Source: Escherichia phage EC121
Strand: one strand, 5' to 3'
DNA: 64,000 nucleotides
Sequence record: NC_054909.1
Shown here: positions 14,370-21,569 of the stretch, in pieces
Position numbering within the stretch: position 1 is the first letter of the stretch
How the letters are laid out: each line of letters opens with the position of its first letter
The notes under the pieces: model-generated
Database searches by the model: none
The model's input: the letters and a program-made list of their open reading frames with translations, nothing else
Told to the model about the DNA's origin: nothing
Program-made: the position numbers and the translations under genes

Positions 14370-15334
14370 TGTATTCTTTAGAGGAATTTAATAATCAAGC
14401 AATAAACGCAGATTTCCAACGTAATAATATGTTTAGCTGCGTTTTTGCGACAACTCCATCAACTAAAAGCTCTTCGTTGATAAGTTCAATTAGCAACTTT
14501 TCTTATAATAACTTGGGTCTAAATTCAGATTGGTTAGGATTGACTCAAGGCGATATTAATCAGGGAATTACCACGCTAATTACCGCTGGCACACAAAAAC
14601 TGATAAGAAAATCAGGGGTTAGTAAATATCTTATTGGTGCCATGAGTCAACGTACAGTTCAAAGTTTATTGGGCTCATTTACAGTTGGTACATATTTAAT
14701 TGACTTCTTTAACATGGCATATAACTCATCTGGATTGATGATATATTCTGTAAAAATGCCAGAGAATAGATTATCCTATGAAACTGACTGGAACTATAAT
14801 TCTCCTAATATTCGTATAACTGGGAGAGAATTAGACCCTTTGGTTATTTCATTTAGGATGGATTCAGAAGCTTGTAACTATCGTGCGATGCAAGACTGGG
14901 TTAACGCTGTTCAAGACCCAGTAACTGGATTGCGTGCTTTGCCACAAGATGTCGAGGCAGATATTCAGGTTAATCTTCATGCTCGTAATGGATTACCTCA
15001 TACTGCGGTGATGTTCACTGGATGCATTCCAATGTCAGTGAGCGCTCCTGAGCTATCATATGATGGAGATAACCAAATAACTACATTTGATGTTACTTTT
15101 GCGTATAGAGTCATGCAGGCTGGGTCGGTTGATAGACAAGCTGCGCTTGAGTGGCTTGAATCTGCTGCTATAAACGGTATTCAAAGCGTTCTCGGAAATA
15201 GTGGAGGTGTTACTGGATTATCTAATTCGCTTTCACGACTTAGTAGATTAGGAGGAACTGCTGGAAGCATTTCAAACATTAATACTATGACGGGAATTGT
15301 CAACTCGCAAAGTAAAATATTAGGAGCAATATAA
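14369..15334 (+). CDS. 54: Baseplate-tail tube initiator gp54
   Basis: 321 aa; TAATG overlap with gene 48; synteny. Confidence 0.8.
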   Translation: MYSLEEFNNQAINADFQRNNMFSCVFATTPSTKSSSLISSISNFSYNNLGLNSDWLGLTQGDINQGITTLITAGTQKLIRKSGVSKYLIGAMSQRTVQSLLGSFTVGTYLIDFFNMAYNSSGLMIYSVKMPENRLSYETDWNYNSPNIRITGRELDPLVISFRMDSEACNYRAMQDWVNAVQDPVTGLRALPQDVEADIQVNLHARNGLPHTAVMFTGCIPMSVSAPELSYDGDNQITTFDVTFAYRVMQAGSVDRQAALEWLESAAINGIQSVLGNSGGVTGLSNSLSRLSRLGGTAGSISNINTMTGIVNSQSKILGAI

Positions 15335-15338
15335 CAAT

Positions 15339-15372
15339 GGGGACCGAAAGGTCCCCATATTTTTATTTACGG
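15339..15372 (+). terminator. Rho-independent terminator after gene 54
   Basis: GGGGACC-GAAA-GGTCCCC hairpin followed by ATATTTTTATTT. Confidence 0.65.
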
Positions 15373-15653
15373 AATGAAATGAAAGCAGCAACTGAAGCAA
15401 CTAAACTGTCTTCAATATAAACTTCAATTTTTACCGGAGCTTCTGACTCAAATTTACCTGTTACTACACCTTGGAAAATGCTTTCAGTCTGTTCTGGCTT
15501 TGAAAAATTTTCAGAAGGAAAAATTCCGAACTTTTTATCTGTTCCAAAAATTTTGATAAATTCATCATAAACTGCTTCATTAAAAGCGTTATCAGCAGGA
15601 ATAACGCCTTCAACTACAAGTTCTTGACCTAAAAAGCGTAAAGAAGATTTCAT
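15363..15653 (-). CDS. Hypothetical protein
   Basis: 96-aa ORF with its own early-promoter/leader cassette upstream. Confidence 0.5.
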   Translation of the reverse strand: MKSSLRFLGQELVVEGVIPADNAFNEAVYDEFIKIFGTDKKFGIFPSENFSKPEQTESIFQGVVTGKFESEAPVKIEVYIEDSLVASVAAFISFRK

Positions 15654-15660
15654 TTTGTGT

Positions 15661-15714
15661 TCCTCATGTTATGTCAGTAAGACTACTATAACACAACACG
15701 AGGGACTTGTAAAC
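15661..15714 (-). promoter_or_regulatory. T4-type early promoter plus leader, cassette copy 1
   Basis: Minus strand reads GTTTAC, 18-nt spacer, TATAGT, then a leader with GAGGA ahead of the ATG; 53 of 54 bp identical to 30938-30991. Confidence 0.55.
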
Positions 15715-17771
15715 TACATTTTGAACTTTTTAGACATTCCGTTGATGTTAACCAAAGAAGCTAAGATTTGAGAAACTTCGTTTTCCTCTTCTTTTGATTC
15801 TTCTACAAGGAATTGATTAAATCCAGCCATTGGACGAACTTCACCAGTTTCCATTAGATGGTCGCCATCATATACTGATTCTTCTAATTGTTCAGAAGGA
15901 GGAACGATTGTGCCTTCAATTAGATACTTGTTATAAGCAGTTTCTTTCATCATGTACGTGCTTACTTTATTAATCTTCAACAAAATTCCACGCGGTAGAA
16001 TAACTTCAGCTTCTGATGGAAATCCTGATAAATGACCTGGAACGATAACTTTAATTCGCTCAGCTCCTTTTATTACCATACCCACGCTAGTTTCAGCATC
16101 TTCATTAGCATATGCGGAATGACTACCCATATGCATTAAATCTTCGGCATCAACAGAACCTTCTCCTTCACCAGAAAATACTGCGCCGGAATCATCTAGA
16201 GCCATATAGTTTTTACCATGCTCACCGAAGATATTTGGTTTAAGCGATGTTGATACGAAGTTCTTGAAATAGAACATTTTATTTTCAATATTATGGCGTA
16301 AAGTTTTAAAAGTAACTTCTTGTCCACGATAAAGCGTAGTTCCCGGAGGAAGAACTGATCCTTTGGCGAATGCAGAATCCAACGTCTCGATGTGTTTAAT
16401 AGCTCGTTCCATGTATTCTTCACGGGTAGAATCTGGTTTACCCAAGAGGAACGAGTTCATTTCAACATATGAATCTGCACAATAATCTTCAATTACATCA
16501 GACTCAGCCTGAGTCAGTCCTTTTGGAGTTACTTCGGTGCTTGCGTATTCATATGCCTGAGCAGCAGATTCATTAATCAATTTATAAATGCCATTCATGA
16601 CAAATTGAATAATAGCTACCTTTTCGTCTGGTGTGGCTTTAGAACCTTTAACTAAATCATTGATAATTTTCTTAATAACATCAAAGCTATTAGAAATATT
16701 AATGTCAGCGAGATCGCTCAAAATTTTATCGGTTTTATAATCAAAAAATTCTTTATTCTTTAAATATTCTTGAGAACCTTGATGTGTTATATCGCTCTGC
16801 AGTCTGATAGACGGATCACGTAAACGTGCATGGGCCAATGCAATATGATTTCGGAAGCTTTCTAGTTCATAATCGTTAGATTTAAAACGAGAAGCACTTC
16901 TCATACCACCGATAGCTCCTTTGCCGAAGTTTGAACCAATCTGAATAACGCCAGAGTTCATTGGTCCTTCTGCTTTATATACAGGAACTTTAGATTCAAA
17001 CTCTTGATATTTCTTGGCAGCGAAGCTATCACCCTGAAGTGAAGCATCGACAGTAGAATATTGAGCTTGCGCTGCTAATCGACGACTAATTTTAGTTTTC
17101 TGAATAACAGCTTGATCCGTGCGCTTATCATTTTCTAAAGCAATAGAAGCAGCAACAGCAACAGCTTTAGGAACAGCATTACCTGTTTTAACATCTACAT
17201 AAACATCACCAACCTTTGATTCAACTTTTGTGAATAACTCAGTTGAAATAGGAGGTACGCCTGGAATGTCTTCTAAATTGGCATTTTTACGGTAAACCAT
17301 AATATATGCATACTTTTTATCATAATCCCAGATTTCCTTTAAAAGAACATATCGACCTGCTCCTTTAGTACGTACTAAACGATCAGCAATAACTTGCATT
17401 TGACGAGCTGCGCCATTTGTTTTACTTTTTAGTACGCGGAATAGGCATGCGTCAATTTTATACTGTTTCATTGTTTGAAGAGCAGTATCAAAAACCGCAT
17501 TAATGACACCAATTGGATTTCCACCCAAGTTTTTAAGTTTAACTAATGATAGTTTCTCATTAACACCTATCATTACGATATGCATCATTTTATCGCCTGG
17601 CTTAACGTTTTTATTTGTATCACCACCAGAGGTGTATGTACAAAATCTAAATCCAGGAAGCACACTTTCTTCGCCGGCTTGAATAGCAAAAATTTGAGGT
17701 ATTTTATGCTTAGGATTTAAGTTAACAACCGGCGCCGAAGCGCCGTCAAATAATTCTGTAATAAGTTCCAT
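15714..17771 (-). CDS. Alt-like ADP-ribosyltransferase, paralog B
   Basis: 685 aa; N-terminal ~230 aa highly similar to the adjacent Alt; C-terminus keeps ART motifs (LYRGQ, FVSTSL, SEAEVILPRG); middle region diverged. Confidence 0.8.
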   Translation of the reverse strand: MELITELFDGASAPVVNLNPKHKIPQIFAIQAGEESVLPGFRFCTYTSGGDTNKNVKPGDKMMHIVMIGVNEKLSLVKLKNLGGNPIGVINAVFDTALQTMKQYKIDACLFRVLKSKTNGAARQMQVIADRLVRTKGAGRYVLLKEIWDYDKKYAYIMVYRKNANLEDIPGVPPISTELFTKVESKVGDVYVDVKTGNAVPKAVAVAASIALENDKRTDQAVIQKTKISRRLAAQAQYSTVDASLQGDSFAAKKYQEFESKVPVYKAEGPMNSGVIQIGSNFGKGAIGGMRSASRFKSNDYELESFRNHIALAHARLRDPSIRLQSDITHQGSQEYLKNKEFFDYKTDKILSDLADINISNSFDVIKKIINDLVKGSKATPDEKVAIIQFVMNGIYKLINESAAQAYEYASTEVTPKGLTQAESDVIEDYCADSYVEMNSFLLGKPDSTREEYMERAIKHIETLDSAFAKGSVLPPGTTLYRGQEVTFKTLRHNIENKMFYFKNFVSTSLKPNIFGEHGKNYMALDDSGAVFSGEGEGSVDAEDLMHMGSHSAYANEDAETSVGMVIKGAERIKVIVPGHLSGFPSEAEVILPRGILLKINKVSTYMMKETAYNKYLIEGTIVPPSEQLEESVYDGDHLMETGEVRPMAGFNQFLVEESKEEENEVSQILASLVNINGMSKKFKM

Positions 17772-17774
17772 GAT

Positions 17775-19871
17775 TTATCCTTGAACGAACTTGTAAGGCA
17801 TGTTTGTAATATCTATGCAAGACGCAATAATTCCAAGAGATGATTCTACTTTTTGTTTAACATTTGATGAAACAAATGATGCAAAGTCAACTCTGTCTTC
17901 TATTTCAATATCACCTGTCATTGCAACTACTTCACCAGTTTCCATTAGACGGTCACCGTCATAAATTACTGATTCGGTGAGTTCTTCCGTAGTCATAACT
18001 TCAGCTTGAATGAGTTTTGTATTATTAGATGTTGTTCCGTCATTATTAGAAGCATCAGTTATTTTATTAACTTTGACCATCAATCCGCGTGGTAGAATAA
18101 CTTCAGCTTCTGTTGCTATTCCGAGACTTCCTGGATATACAACATTAACTTTATGAGCTCCATCAATTGCCCATCCTATTTGAACTTTAACGTATTCAGG
18201 ATTTTCTTTATACGCTCTTATTTCGTTTGGATTAATAGTTATTCCTTCTTCATTTTTATCAACTGTTAATTCATTACGAGCTTCTGGTTCTAAAAGACCA
18301 ATACCAGCATGTGTAATTCCAAAACGTCCAAAAATGATAGGAGTTAAAGAAGTAGATACAAAATTTCTGAAATAGAATACTTTATTTTTAACTAGTGCTT
18401 CGTATATAGGAGCAGTCATACTTTGAGCACGATAAACTGTAATGCCTTCTGGTATACGGTCACCATTTTCAAAAGCTGAATCTAAGTTATTTATAGCAGA
18501 TTCAATTTCTTTTTCACTCATTACATCATATCGTTCTGGATTGTAGCGTCCTAAAAGAAGATTATTGATGTCAGTATATCCTGAACCGCAATACTCTCTA
18601 ATGCCGCGCTTTTGTGATGGAGTATATTTAGAACCATCACGGGCAATAGTAATATCAATCATTGGACCTGCACCAATTCCAGAAAAGCTATAAATCATTC
18701 GTTTGAGGAATTTAGTTTTTGCTGCGTTCCAGGAATTTTTAGTTATTTCTTCCCAGACTTCATCTGGCTGTCCTTTACGGGTTTTATTATGTTTATCAAG
18801 CCAATTATCTTTATATTCTTCAAAGAGTTGATTAACAGCTGCTGCGTATTTCTCCAAACATTTTATTGAAGTAGTTGGTTCATTTTTAATCGCATTAAGA
18901 ATTACATCTTTAATCTTTTCAGAAACTTCATTAACCTCACTTTTTGAAAAGAATTTATAGTCATAATGAAGTTCATCTGCAGTTCCTTCAGCAATAATTT
19001 TTGCTGCCTTAGTTTTAGAAGCTAATGAATTAATTCCAAGCTTCATTTCTTCTGCTTCGGGAATTAAAGGAGCTGTAGCAGGTTTATTGAAATTAGCTGC
19101 GGTAGATTCATACTTCTGGAATAATTCACTTTCAAATCTAGAAGATTCTAATGATTGACTTTGTGCAATTGCTCTACGGGAAATTTTAACTTTAACGATT
19201 ACAGCTTGGTCAGAACGTTTATCGTTTTCTTGCGCAATAGATGCTGCAATTGCCTCATTTTTAGTTACTTGAGCTCCGGTATCTTTATTGATATAAACAT
19301 CACCGACCTTCGATTCAACTTTAGTAAAGAGCTCGGTACTAATTTCTGGAACTCCTGGAATGTCTTCTAGTGATACATTTTTACGATGTATAAGAATATA
19401 TGCATACTTTTTATCGTAATCCCAGAGTTCCTTAAGAAGGACGTATCTGCCACCTGAACGACTACGGATAAGTCTATCAGCAATAACTTGAATTTGTCGA
19501 GCTTGGCCAGCAGTTTTAGACTTAAGAATACGAAGCATACAAGCATCAATTTTATATTGACGCATTGTTTGCATTGCAACAGTAAAAACTGAATTGATAT
19601 AATTAATTGGGCTTGGACCAAGACCTTTTAATTTAGCAATTGAACCTTTAGCAGTTAATGTAAAAGGAACAATGTGCATCATTTTGTCGCCCATTTTTAA
19701 ATCGCGATTAGTATCACCTCCAGATGTATATGTACATAAACGAAAGCCTGGTTGTTCAATTGCATCATCAACATGAACTGAAAAAATTTGTGGTATTTTC
19801 TTCTTTGGATTTAAGTTTGTAATCGGAAGAGTAGTATCTTCGTCAAATAATTCTGTAATAAGTTCCATCAT
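17775..19871 (-). CDS. alt: Alt ADP-ribosyltransferase (virion-packaged, modifies host RNA polymerase alpha in T4)
   Basis: 698 aa; ART motifs VYRAQ, FVSTSL, ATEAEVILPRG; sits next to gene 30 as in T4; late promoter upstream. Confidence 0.8.
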   Translation of the reverse strand: MMELITELFDEDTTLPITNLNPKKKIPQIFSVHVDDAIEQPGFRLCTYTSGGDTNRDLKMGDKMMHIVPFTLTAKGSIAKLKGLGPSPINYINSVFTVAMQTMRQYKIDACMLRILKSKTAGQARQIQVIADRLIRSRSGGRYVLLKELWDYDKKYAYILIHRKNVSLEDIPGVPEISTELFTKVESKVGDVYINKDTGAQVTKNEAIAASIAQENDKRSDQAVIVKVKISRRAIAQSQSLESSRFESELFQKYESTAANFNKPATAPLIPEAEEMKLGINSLASKTKAAKIIAEGTADELHYDYKFFSKSEVNEVSEKIKDVILNAIKNEPTTSIKCLEKYAAAVNQLFEEYKDNWLDKHNKTRKGQPDEVWEEITKNSWNAAKTKFLKRMIYSFSGIGAGPMIDITIARDGSKYTPSQKRGIREYCGSGYTDINNLLLGRYNPERYDVMSEKEIESAINNLDSAFENGDRIPEGITVYRAQSMTAPIYEALVKNKVFYFRNFVSTSLTPIIFGRFGITHAGIGLLEPEARNELTVDKNEEGITINPNEIRAYKENPEYVKVQIGWAIDGAHKVNVVYPGSLGIATEAEVILPRGLMVKVNKITDASNNDGTTSNNTKLIQAEVMTTEELTESVIYDGDRLMETGEVVAMTGDIEIEDRVDFASFVSSNVKQKVESSLGIIASCIDITNMPYKFVQG

Positions 19872-19891
19872 AGCCTCTCTAGTGTTTATTC

Positions 19892-19899
19892 TATTTATA
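19892..19899 (-). promoter_or_regulatory. Late promoter (TATAAATA on minus strand) for alt
   Basis: Reverse complement is TATAAATA, about 20 nt upstream of the alt start. Confidence 0.5.
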
Positions 19900-19906
19900 A
19901 AATTAA

Positions 19907-19920
19907 AGGCCCGAAGGCCT
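19907..19920 (-). terminator. Hairpin terminator between the gene 30 unit and alt
   Basis: GGCC-CGAA/TTCG-GGCC hairpin followed on the minus strand by a T-rich run. Confidence 0.5.
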
Positions 19921-20109
19921 TTAGTAATCTAGTGGTAAGAGAGTACGATATATTTCAAACTTTGGTCCTTTTTCATAGGCATCAAATGTTTCTGTAAATT
20001 TATTGTAAGCATATGCATCTACAAATTCGAGAATGACTTGTGATACAGAAGTAGAAACATCTCCACCTTCTTTTTGAGCAATGACAATTGTTTCTAAGTA
20101 AGCTTTCAT
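19921..20109 (-). CDS. Hypothetical 62-aa protein coupled to DNA ligase
   Basis: ATG overlaps the gene 30 stop (ATGA); acidic small protein. Confidence 0.5.
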   Translation of the reverse strand: MKAYLETIVIAQKEGGDVSTSVSQVILEFVDAYAYNKFTETFDAYEKGPKFEIYRTLLPLDY

Positions 20110-21569
20110 AAACCAGTTACCTCATGAAAATCGCCAAATACATCCTCGAATGTATTAGCTTTAGTTTTATCTTCACGTAAACGAATCGCAATCGGAAGAA
20201 ATAATTTAACGTAATCAGTGCGGCCATCAGATTTTAACCAACCGTTGCATTCGCACTCTAGAATTTTTCCAATATAATAATTTTGGTTTTCCATAATGCG
20301 AGTACGGTCAAGTTCATGCGATTTTACACCAGCTTTATCTTTTAAGCCTGAACCAGCATTTACTTTAATTTTTCCACACTCTGACTCAAGAATAAATCCA
20401 CCCGCTTTAGTAGGGTCTTTACGGTGAGGATAAATTCCTACAATTTTTAAATCAACATCAATTACTTCTTTAAATTTATAAAGATTTTTTGAACGAGCAT
20501 TTTCCCATAATCCATCGATATTTTTGAGAATAATACCTTCAAGACCTTGGTCAATATACTTTTTGTAAATTACCTTAGCTTCATCTAGGTTATTTACTAC
20601 CTGGTTTTCAATTAAAATTACTTTATCATATCCCGATGTCATTTGTTCTAGTTTAGAAAAACGTACATCATATTTCAAACGAAATGCTGGAAGACCATAT
20701 ATTTCTACTAATGGAACATAATCCCAGACCTGAAACTTCATGCATTGAGCTTCTTTTTCTGAAATGGTTCCCTTTAAAGATTTATTAGCGATTCCATTAG
20801 AAGTAGTACGTGATTCAGCTACTTCGGCGAATTCTTTAGCTTTACTAATTTCAGGATAAGCATCAAAAAGAAAATCTAGGCCTTCTGGTTCCTTTTCAAC
20901 TTGCTCATGGTATACCAATTCGCCATCAATTAACACACCTTCTGGATGAATCTGGCGAGCTTCTGCAGTCATTTTGATTAACTCTTCCTTGAGAAGATCT
21001 AATCCTAGATATTCATTACCAGCTCGTGATAAAAGACGAACATCATCTAATTCATCACCTCTGACTTCAGCAAAGCACCGAGCTCCATCAGCTTTTAACT
21101 GGGCAAAAGCTGGAAATTTGATATTCTTATTAATGCCTTTTTCATCATAAGAACTTGCCAGCATTTGAGGTTGTTCAGGAATTAAACCTGGCCAAACTTT
21201 GTTTGCAATAGATACTGATGCACCACATTCAAGGTCTCGCATCATCACCCGACGCAAAACTTCAACATCATCTTTTTTACCGTCAGCAATATATCCAGTT
21301 AATTCCTCAATTGCCGCATTTCCGGTCAATTTCCGAGTAGCTAACGTGAATTCAATGAAGTCAAGCATATCGGTAAGAGTTAACATTCCAAAACTCTGGG
21401 TAGAAATACCCGGTTTAGGCCATTTCTTGATATAATACTGCAACCCACGAGAATAAGTCAGACGATATACTCGTTTAAGCAATTCATTATCTTTATTCTT
21501 TTCAAGAATTGCTTGCTTCTGCTTAGTTGAACCAATAGATGCTATTTCGTTCAGAATTTTAAGAATCAT
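20106..21569 (-). CDS. 30: ATP-dependent DNA ligase gp30
   Basis: 487 aa (T4 ligase length); N-terminus MILKILNEIASIGSTKQKQAILEKNKDNELLKRVYRLTYSRGLQYYIKKWPKP matches T4 DNA ligase. Confidence 0.92.
   Translation of the reverse strand: MILKILNEIASIGSTKQKQAILEKNKDNELLKRVYRLTYSRGLQYYIKKWPKPGISTQSFGMLTLTDMLDFIEFTLATRKLTGNAAIEELTGYIADGKKDDVEVLRRVMMRDLECGASVSIANKVWPGLIPEQPQMLASSYDEKGINKNIKFPAFAQLKADGARCFAEVRGDELDDVRLLSRAGNEYLGLDLLKEELIKMTAEARQIHPEGVLIDGELVYHEQVEKEPEGLDFLFDAYPEISKAKEFAEVAESRTTSNGIANKSLKGTISEKEAQCMKFQVWDYVPLVEIYGLPAFRLKYDVRFSKLEQMTSGYDKVILIENQVVNNLDEAKVIYKKYIDQGLEGIILKNIDGLWENARSKNLYKFKEVIDVDLKIVGIYPHRKDPTKAGGFILESECGKIKVNAGSGLKDKAGVKSHELDRTRIMENQNYYIGKILECECNGWLKSDGRTDYVKLFLPIAIRLREDKTKANTFEDVFGDFHEVTGL

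Follow-up and report, generated by a model that had tools for sequence, protein, structure and literature searches.

Nearly all that is known about the ADP-ribosyltransferases (ARTs) that phages inject into their hosts comes from T4, a phage with a single allele of Alt and the mere stub of a second gene. T4 alt is transcribed late (PMC9697503), and its product is a prohead core protein of about 40 copies per head that is ejected into the host (PMC9026906). Mass spectrometry showed that T4 Alt is cut by the protease gp21 at ITE-6 and LTE-619, leaving a protein of 68.2 kDa (PMC5694885), and mutation of the second Glu of its E-x-E motif abolishes activity (PMC11404850). ADP-ribosylation of RNA polymerase alpha is known only for this T4 allele (PMC5512222, PMC9503650). 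Duplications of alt were described by Nolan et al. (2006) in T4 (alt.-1 and alt.-2), RB49 and 44RR, the one in 44RR being full length (PMC1524935). Here we report on a stretch of 64,000 nucleotides from Escherichia phage EC121 (NC_054909.1; hereafter the window), which belongs to a Tequatrovirus (T4-like) genome and carries two intact genes of the alt type in tandem. Such a pair is already known: it was noted in the literature in 2006 and is annotated in hundreds of GenBank records, so that we do not present it as a discovery. As a sequence observation the gene pair is ordinary.

Both open reading frames are on the minus strand. The upstream one, designated A1, occupies positions 17775..19871 and encodes 698 aa from its first ATG or 697 aa from its second (19868); the downstream one, A2, occupies 15714..17771, encodes 685 aa and is the intact form of what is annotated in T4 as alt.-1 and alt.-2. 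These lengths and positions, and the gap of only 3 nt (ATC, 17772..17774) between stop and start codon, are as given in the preliminary description of this DNA. The junction reads ...CAAGGA TAA ATC ATG GAA..., which places the A2 ribosome-binding site, AAGGA, within the 3' end of A1, and the sequence TTCAAGGATAAATCATGG at this point is the same in all compared loci, T4 included. We observed that both genes are intact and under purifying selection, that they retain the catalytic residues, that they lie behind a conserved control block, and that A2 is orthologous to the remnant in T4. The reading that we favor, and consider likely, is that A1 and A2 are paralogous Alt enzymes, both of them functional, which are made late, packaged and injected, and which probably have different targets.

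A comparison with Pfam PF03496 (ADPrib_exo_Tox; cutoff 23.4) gave 129.2 bits for A1 (E 1.6e-37) and 72.7 bits for A2 (E 3.2e-20), the C-terminal part of A2 by itself scoring 74.4 bits, and both proteins matched PHROG 802 ('Alt-like RNA polymerase ADP-ribosyltransferase') from end to end. In A1 as in A2, the Arg, Ser-Thr-Ser and Glu-x-Glu of the catalytic site are in register with those of T4 Alt, ModA and ModB. The motifs YR(A/G)Q, FVSTSL and (T/S)EAEVILPRG, first recognized from the letters of the sequence, are present and aligned in both proteins, and careful alignment showed that neither has lost the catalytic Arg or Glu. In A1, with residues counted from the second ATG at 19868, these sites are R480, S505-T-S507 and E587-A-E589; in A2 they are R482 (codon 16326-16328), S507-T-S509 (16245-16253) and E587-A-E589 (16005-16013), all on the minus strand. 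The second Glu that is essential in T4 Alt corresponds to E589 in A1 and in A2 alike.

AlphaFold models, with a pLDDT (predicted local distance difference test) of 73.9 for A2 and 76.7 for A1, displayed the same layout in both proteins: (i) an alpha/beta N-domain at residues ~1-238, (ii) an all-helical region at ~245-410, (iii) an ART domain at ~415-625, and (iv) a poorly predicted tail. The ART fold is that of the R-S-E clade (Alt/VIP2/C3), with Vis as the best structural match. A sequence search of solved structures returned nothing for A2 and only weak CDTa/iota matches for A1, and no solved Alt structure was found. In the residue numbering of A1, the N-domain comprises 1-238, the helical central region 239-412 and the ART core about 413-625. 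On the DNA of A2 (minus strand), the N-terminal alpha/beta domain (residues 1-238) lies at 17058..17771 and begins with the predicted propeptide MELITE (17754-17771); the central all-helical region (residues 239-415) lies at 16527..17057, and the ART core (residues 416-625), which includes a low-confidence acidic insert at residues 516-555, at 15897..16526. Considering motif and fold together, we infer that both proteins are arginine ADP-ribosyltransferases.

The N-domain corresponds to PF26846 (Tevenvirinae_ADPRT), as evidenced by a precomputed Pfam match on a 99%-identical cluster representative (P0001) and on all its listed relatives; a local Pfam search of A1 and A2 did not report PF26846. 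When the N-domain of A2 was searched against 1.84 billion representative proteins, only 69 matches were obtained. The idea that it might serve as a general delivery module was rejected, since 57 of the 59 long matches carry an ART domain and none of the 59 shows any further Pfam domain.

Pairwise alignment, together with the comparison with T4 Alt, ModA and ModB, confirmed that two full-length Alt-type genes stand in tandem. Their products share 41% identity overall, and this identity is unevenly distributed: by A1 residues it amounts to 66% over 1-238, 15% over 239-412, 32% over 413-600 and 32% over 601-697. The N-terminal third had been called near-identical; it is indeed conserved, but at 66% identity this wording was too strong. 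The substantial difference between the central regions, on the other hand, was borne out. Within the ART core, the least conserved part is the stretch from S-T-S to E-x-E, with 5-20% identity in 40-column windows. Central regions and S-T-S/E-x-E insert are almost unrelated between the paralogues, yet conserved within each group of orthologues.

The prevalence of the second gene was investigated in phage records. Full-length A2 was present, at about 90-98.6% DNA identity, in 400 of the 498 matching records, and at a protein identity of at least 80% in 401; the orthologues are 95-100% identical as proteins and have the same length and position. Carriers include T2, T6, RB3, RB27, ECO4, Ozark, teqsoen and ime09, and the labels given to the gene vary among 'alt.-2', 'hypothetical protein' and 'Alt-like RNA polymerase ADP-ribosyltransferase'. 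For the estimation of selection by the Nei-Gojobori method we used 8-9 genomes from GenBank phage records, because a scan of IMG/VR gave only 5 loci. The ratio of nonsynonymous to synonymous substitution rates (dN/dS) was 0.058 for A1 (dS 0.13) and 0.037 for A2 (dS 0.17), with 0.020 for the A2 ART core (dS 0.23) and 0.019 for the A2 N-domain (dS 0.14). Both genes are under strong purifying selection, and these low ratios exclude a decaying duplicate in the genomes compared.

Tandem Alt pairs were likewise seen in a metagenomic phage of greater divergence and in one Biquartavirus, Aeromonas phage avDM10-HWA (L019 6049-9920). In the latter, tandem Alt-like genes of 639 and 640 aa adjoin gp54, and a tblastn search of its genome revealed four Alt-like places. 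The copy number of Alt varies across the Straboviridae.

Both proteins contain the two motifs at which gp21 cleavage would be predicted, ITE-6 and LTE-632 in A1 and ITE-6 and LEE-631 in A2, at homologous positions. The predicted C-terminal site of A2, L-E-E631 (E631 codon 15879-15881), and the propeptide of residues 632-685 are encoded at 15717..15881 on the minus strand. For T4 Alt residues 7-619 the computed mass was 68.2 kDa, the same as the published value; the corresponding predicted mature masses are 70.1 kDa for A1 and 69.1 kDa for A2. A family alignment was made of the 59 long proteins among the 69 N-domain matches. Glu occupies position P1 in 56 of these 59 at the N-terminal site and in 58 at the C-terminal site, and P3 is Leu or Ile in 52 and 48, respectively; the catalytic residues in the same 59 proteins are kept in 56 (Arg), 57 and 56 (the two Ser) and 56 and 57 (the two Glu). 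Since the processing sites are conserved to the same degree as the catalytic residues, they are a feature of the whole family. An Alt homologue has been reported in the virion proteome of Morganella phage MP1, in which nothing is said about a second copy.

Ahead of A1 on the minus strand come, in this order, a hairpin resembling an intrinsic terminator (TAAAGGCCTTCGGGCCTTTA, 19904..19923) with a T-rich tail, which ends the alt.1/gp30 unit; a T4-type late promoter motif (TATAAATA, 19892..19899), whose function as a promoter is predicted; the Shine-Dalgarno sequence GAGAGG (19874..19879); and two in-frame ATGs (ATGATGGAA, 19866-19871). The whole block of hairpin, TATAAATA and Shine-Dalgarno sequence is invariant in T2, T6, T4, RB3, RB27 and other loci, and the conserved terminator upstream of alt was noted by Nolan et al. 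(2006; PMC1524935). The distance from GAGAGG to the start codon is 2 nt for the first ATG and 5 nt for the second, a spacing that favors the second; GenBank records likewise begin alt at the second ATG (697 aa, MELITE...). T4 alt also starts with ATGATG, which probably accounts for the discrepancies of numbering in the literature (catalytic Glu E577 versus E576 in RefSeq, and a propeptide of 7 versus 6 residues).

It had been proposed that both genes are transcribed together from the late promoter at 19892-19899. One TATAAATA does stand upstream at this position, and a scan of the coding strand detected no terminator-like site that would separate A1 from A2; the only other hairpin found on this strand is that at 15337-15358. 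The motif by itself, however, is statistically uninformative: the window contains 11 matches against 9.4 expected, which is the chance frequency, so that the count alone is no evidence of a promoter. What lends credibility to the copy at 19892-19899 is its position, the invariance of the upstream block and the late transcription of T4 alt. A further TATAAATA within A1 (18488-18495, minus strand; codon 458) was considered as a second late promoter for A2. This was not supported: RB3 and one IMG/VR genome lack this copy owing to a synonymous change, and, with the motif at chance frequency in the window, the copy has probably arisen by chance.

The sequence of events that we propose is modeled on T4 Alt. 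Each enzyme consists of four parts: a Tevenvirinae_ADPRT N-domain, a helical center, an R-S-E (Alt/VIP2/C3-type) core and a tail at the C-terminus. RNA polymerase directed by gp55 would, late in infection, produce one mRNA from TATAAATA across A1 and A2. This mRNA possibly extends over alt.-3 as well and would then end at the hairpin at 15337-15358, where the alt transcription unit is likely to have its 3' end. Both proteins would be built into the prohead core and trimmed by gp21 at (L/I)-x-E, after E6 in both and after E632 in A1 or E631 in A2. Injected along with the DNA, they would use NAD+ to mono-ADP-ribosylate arginines of host proteins within the first seconds of infection. By this analogy, transcription, packaging, processing and injection are ascribed to both enzymes alike; with less assurance, the divergence of their sequences suggests that A1 and A2 have different or partly overlapping target sets.

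Several points weigh against this scheme. It is from T4 Alt that we extrapolate the promoter, the co-transcription of the two genes, and the packaging, processing and injection of their products, and the separate target specificity is argued from sequence divergence alone. T4 Alt is reported to be promiscuous, so that the target sets of A1 and A2 could overlap heavily. The second gene is also dispensable at least on laboratory hosts, since T4 and 90 other records do without it. In the searchable literature we found neither virion proteomics nor activity assays nor lists of targets for the downstream protein, and for a named second Alt ('Alt2', 'AltB', 'alt.-2') only Nolan et al. (2006) was relevant; the main text of the fPS phage paper makes no mention of Alt, ADP-ribosylation or LC-MS (liquid chromatography-mass spectrometry).

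The alternative that survives best, although we regard it as unlikely, is that A2 is a dosage or back-up duplicate, packaged and injected but acting on the same targets as A1 (RNA polymerase alpha and other Alt substrates). The shared architecture, catalytic residues, protease sites and N-domain are compatible with such a role, as are the growth of T4 without the second gene and the reported promiscuity of Alt (PMC5512222). Yet the two proteins are no more than 15% identical over their central regions and 32% over their ART cores, with an essentially unrelated insert between S-T-S and E-x-E, while each version is near constant among its orthologues (dN/dS 0.04-0.06 at dS about 0.13-0.17). Pure redundancy does not predict the long upkeep of two such different cores, and tandem pairs persist in more distant phages.

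That A2 is made late but stays unpackaged, and works within the cell in which it is made (for instance on host or phage proteins while virions are being assembled) instead of in the next host, appears improbable. Packaging of A2 is a prediction, and T4 ModA and ModB show that phage ARTs can work intracellularly. However, A2 has kept the Alt N-domain in full, together with the MELITE propeptide and, toward its C-terminus, the (L/I)-x-E site; ModA and ModB (16-20% identical to the A2 core) lack all of these, and both cleavage Glu residues are nearly invariant throughout the family. Even less probable is the proposal that A2 transfers ADP-ribose or NAD-capped RNA onto RNA, DNA or a small molecule instead of onto protein arginine. 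It draws on the related T4 ART ModB, which is reported to RNAylate proteins (PMC10468400), on the existence of R-S-E enzymes with non-protein substrates, and on the crystallization of the best structural match, Vis, with agmatine; but the E-x-E motif and the fold of A2 match arginine-specific protein ARTs, and no feature of its sequence indicates a nucleic-acid substrate. Finally, the notion of A2 as a decaying or catalytically dead duplicate, serving as filler or as a structural core protein, takes its cue from the loss of most of A2 in T4 and 90 other records, but is disfavored and very improbable: 400 records have the gene undamaged, the encoded proteins being 95-100% identical, dN/dS is 0.037 overall and 0.020 for the ART core, and none of the catalytic residues is missing.

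With two functional enzymes as the preferred reading, the identity of the first one deserves attention. By its sequence, A1 is the T2/T6-type allele of alt and not the biochemically studied T4 enzyme, from which it differs by a diverged catalytic cassette. A1 (17775-19868, minus strand) is a sharp mosaic relative to T4 Alt (T4 locus L001 5455-7503): by A1 residues, 237 of 238 positions are identical over 1-238, followed by 32% identity over 239-412, 59% over 413-600 and 89% over 601-697. The central region and catalytic cassette of A1 occur in 331 records, including the T6 alt entry X69894, which was deposited in GenBank in the 1990s, and complete T2 genomes; the T4-type cassette occurs in 175. 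From this mosaic and these counts it follows that the alt catalytic cassette exists as at least two alleles in Tequatrovirus. The possibility that T4 Alt is itself a recombinant of A1 and A2 was rejected, as sliding-window identity showed no switch to A2-like sequence.

The second gene of T4 is a remnant. Behind alt (682 aa), the T4 locus has the short genes alt.-1 (61 aa) and alt.-2 (67 aa), whose products match A2 residues 1-56 and 62-116 at 95% and 98% identity, respectively; the families phrog_23015 and phrog_15247, which contain T4 alt.-1 and alt.-2, map to A2 residues 1-56 and 62-117. These two T4 genes (NP_049810, NP_049809) sit behind the same TAA-ATC-ATG junction as A2, so that A2 is collinear and near-identical with them at the same position, but in T4 the frame is disrupted and a deletion has removed codons 116-680, including the whole catalytic domain, whereas A2 is intact. 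T4 thus has the alt.-1/alt.-2 stub only and no functional second copy, a point on which the preliminary description had been undecided.

The breakpoints can be placed precisely. T4 DNA is collinear with positions 17800-17424 (96.8% identity) and then with 15733-15319 (97.3%), with an overlap of 9 nt at the junction. This overlap is a 9-nt direct repeat, CTAAAAAGT, whose upstream copy at 17424..17432 (A2 gene offset 340) marks the left breakpoint and whose downstream copy at 15725..15733 (offset 2039) marks the right one, both on the minus strand; T4 retains a single copy (T4 locus L001 5105-5113). The alignment indicates that T4 has lost 1,699 bp, and with them the whole catalytic domain, between these short repeats. 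The GenBank notes give a different polarity: in that of T4 the remnant is an 'old duplication of the first part of gene alt', and in that of T6 the full gene is an 'apparent insertion in alt.-2'. A deletion in the T4 lineage is favored by the repeats that flank the junction and by the way in which the full-length gene is distributed among phages. The T4-type deletion junction was found in 91 records, many of them T4 isolates or derivatives, together with RB55, RB59 and some wild phages.

The allele in the first slot and the state of the second assort. T4-type alt occurs together with the deletion in T4, fPS-2 and pSe_SNUABM_01, but strict linkage of the two was rejected: among the matches listed, G4498 and G4507 combine T4-type alt with full-length A2, and the counts of 175 T4-type cassettes against 91 deletions agree. 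Three chimeric database proteins (P0004, P0005 and P0007) join an A1-like N-domain to the body of A2 (central region, ART and tail). P0007 (locus L014 4001-6061) occupies the first slot, immediately behind alt.1, a position suggestive of recombination between the two tandem genes; since its contig goes no further, an assembly artefact is possible.

A more far-reaching proposal, which we consider speculative and doubtful as it stands, is that A2 has a host target of its own, possibly a component of a defence or toxin-antitoxin system, as MazF is for T4 Alt, that it was lost in T4, and that the alt locus is a two-slot recombining cassette system. In such a system slot 1 would hold the T4-type or the T2/T6-type allele and slot 2 would hold A2 or the deletion, with N-domain chimeras besides. 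If A2 does have its own target, some of the contrasts in host takeover or defence sensitivity that have long been noted between T4 and T2/T6 would trace to the missing A2. About four in five Tequatrovirus genomes in the searched collection, T2 and T6 included, have two intact enzymes, and in most of these two-enzyme genomes the catalytic cassette of the first enzyme is also unlike that of T4 Alt. For these two reasons, the picture of early host modification drawn from T4 may be incomplete.

The surroundings of the gene pair are those of T4. The best DNA match over positions 15300-20200 was Shigella phage ESh26 (98.4%), and at least 80% of this region is covered in 343 phage records. The local gene order is that of T4, with genes 29, 48 and 54 on the plus strand and alt.-3, A2, A1, alt.1 and DNA ligase gene 30 on the minus strand, so that the pair adjoins the baseplate genes 48/54 and ligase gene 30 and stands behind the predicted late promoter, as is proper to Alt. 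Downstream of A2 lies alt.-3 (15363..15653, minus strand; 96 aa, DUF5498), preceded by a sigma-70-like promoter sequence (TTTACA-17-TATAGT with TG; 15685-15713, minus strand). The alt.-3 gene is conserved here (dN/dS 0.078), and in T4, mutations that extend the C-terminus of Alt.-3 allow escape from the CmdTAC defence system (PMC11618068). The hairpin at 15337..15358, between the converging gp54 and alt.-3, can be read on both strands, with a clear T-rich tail on the plus strand only. On the other side of the pair, alt.1 (19921-20109, minus strand; 62 aa) matches Pfam PF24647, 'Phage blade protein' (E 1.9e-29); a divergent tandem-Alt locus (L015) is without alt.1.

A1 and A2 were compared with described systems. 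The bacterial R-S-E toxins Vis, Certhrax, C3bot, CDTa, iota Ia and VIP2 have the same fold and the R, S-T-S and E-x-E motifs, but are only 14-22% identical to the Alt proteins and lack the N-domain, the helical region and the tails with protease sites. The Alt proteins, for their part, are longer than C3 in the interval from S-T-S to E-x-E, where they carry some 45 inserted residues. T4 ModA and ModB align with A1 and A2 at the same R-S-E catalytic residues, but they are early, non-packaged proteins of about 200 aa without N-domain, central region or propeptides (PMC5512222); A1 and A2, as multi-domain proteins of 685-698 aa, are not of the ModA/ModB type, the A2 core being 20% identical to ModA and 16% to ModB. 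In other T4-like genera, namely in 44RR (ORF187c/188c), avDM10-HWA and JS98 (alt/altb), at least two Alt-like genes of full length adjoin gp54 (PMC1524935 among the sources); their proteins are distant, with 32-48% identity to A2. T4 Alt (gpAlt, NP_049811) occupies the same locus as A1, between gp54/alt.-3 and alt.1/gp30, behind the same upstream terminator, late promoter motif and Shine-Dalgarno block, and has in common with A1 and A2 the four-part architecture, the R-S-E residues and two gp21 sites; its overall identity to A2 is 42%. Between A2 and the second genes of T2, T6, RB3, RB27, ime09 and about 400 further Tequatrovirus records there is no difference of substance, and the arrangement in EC121 represents the common haplotype.

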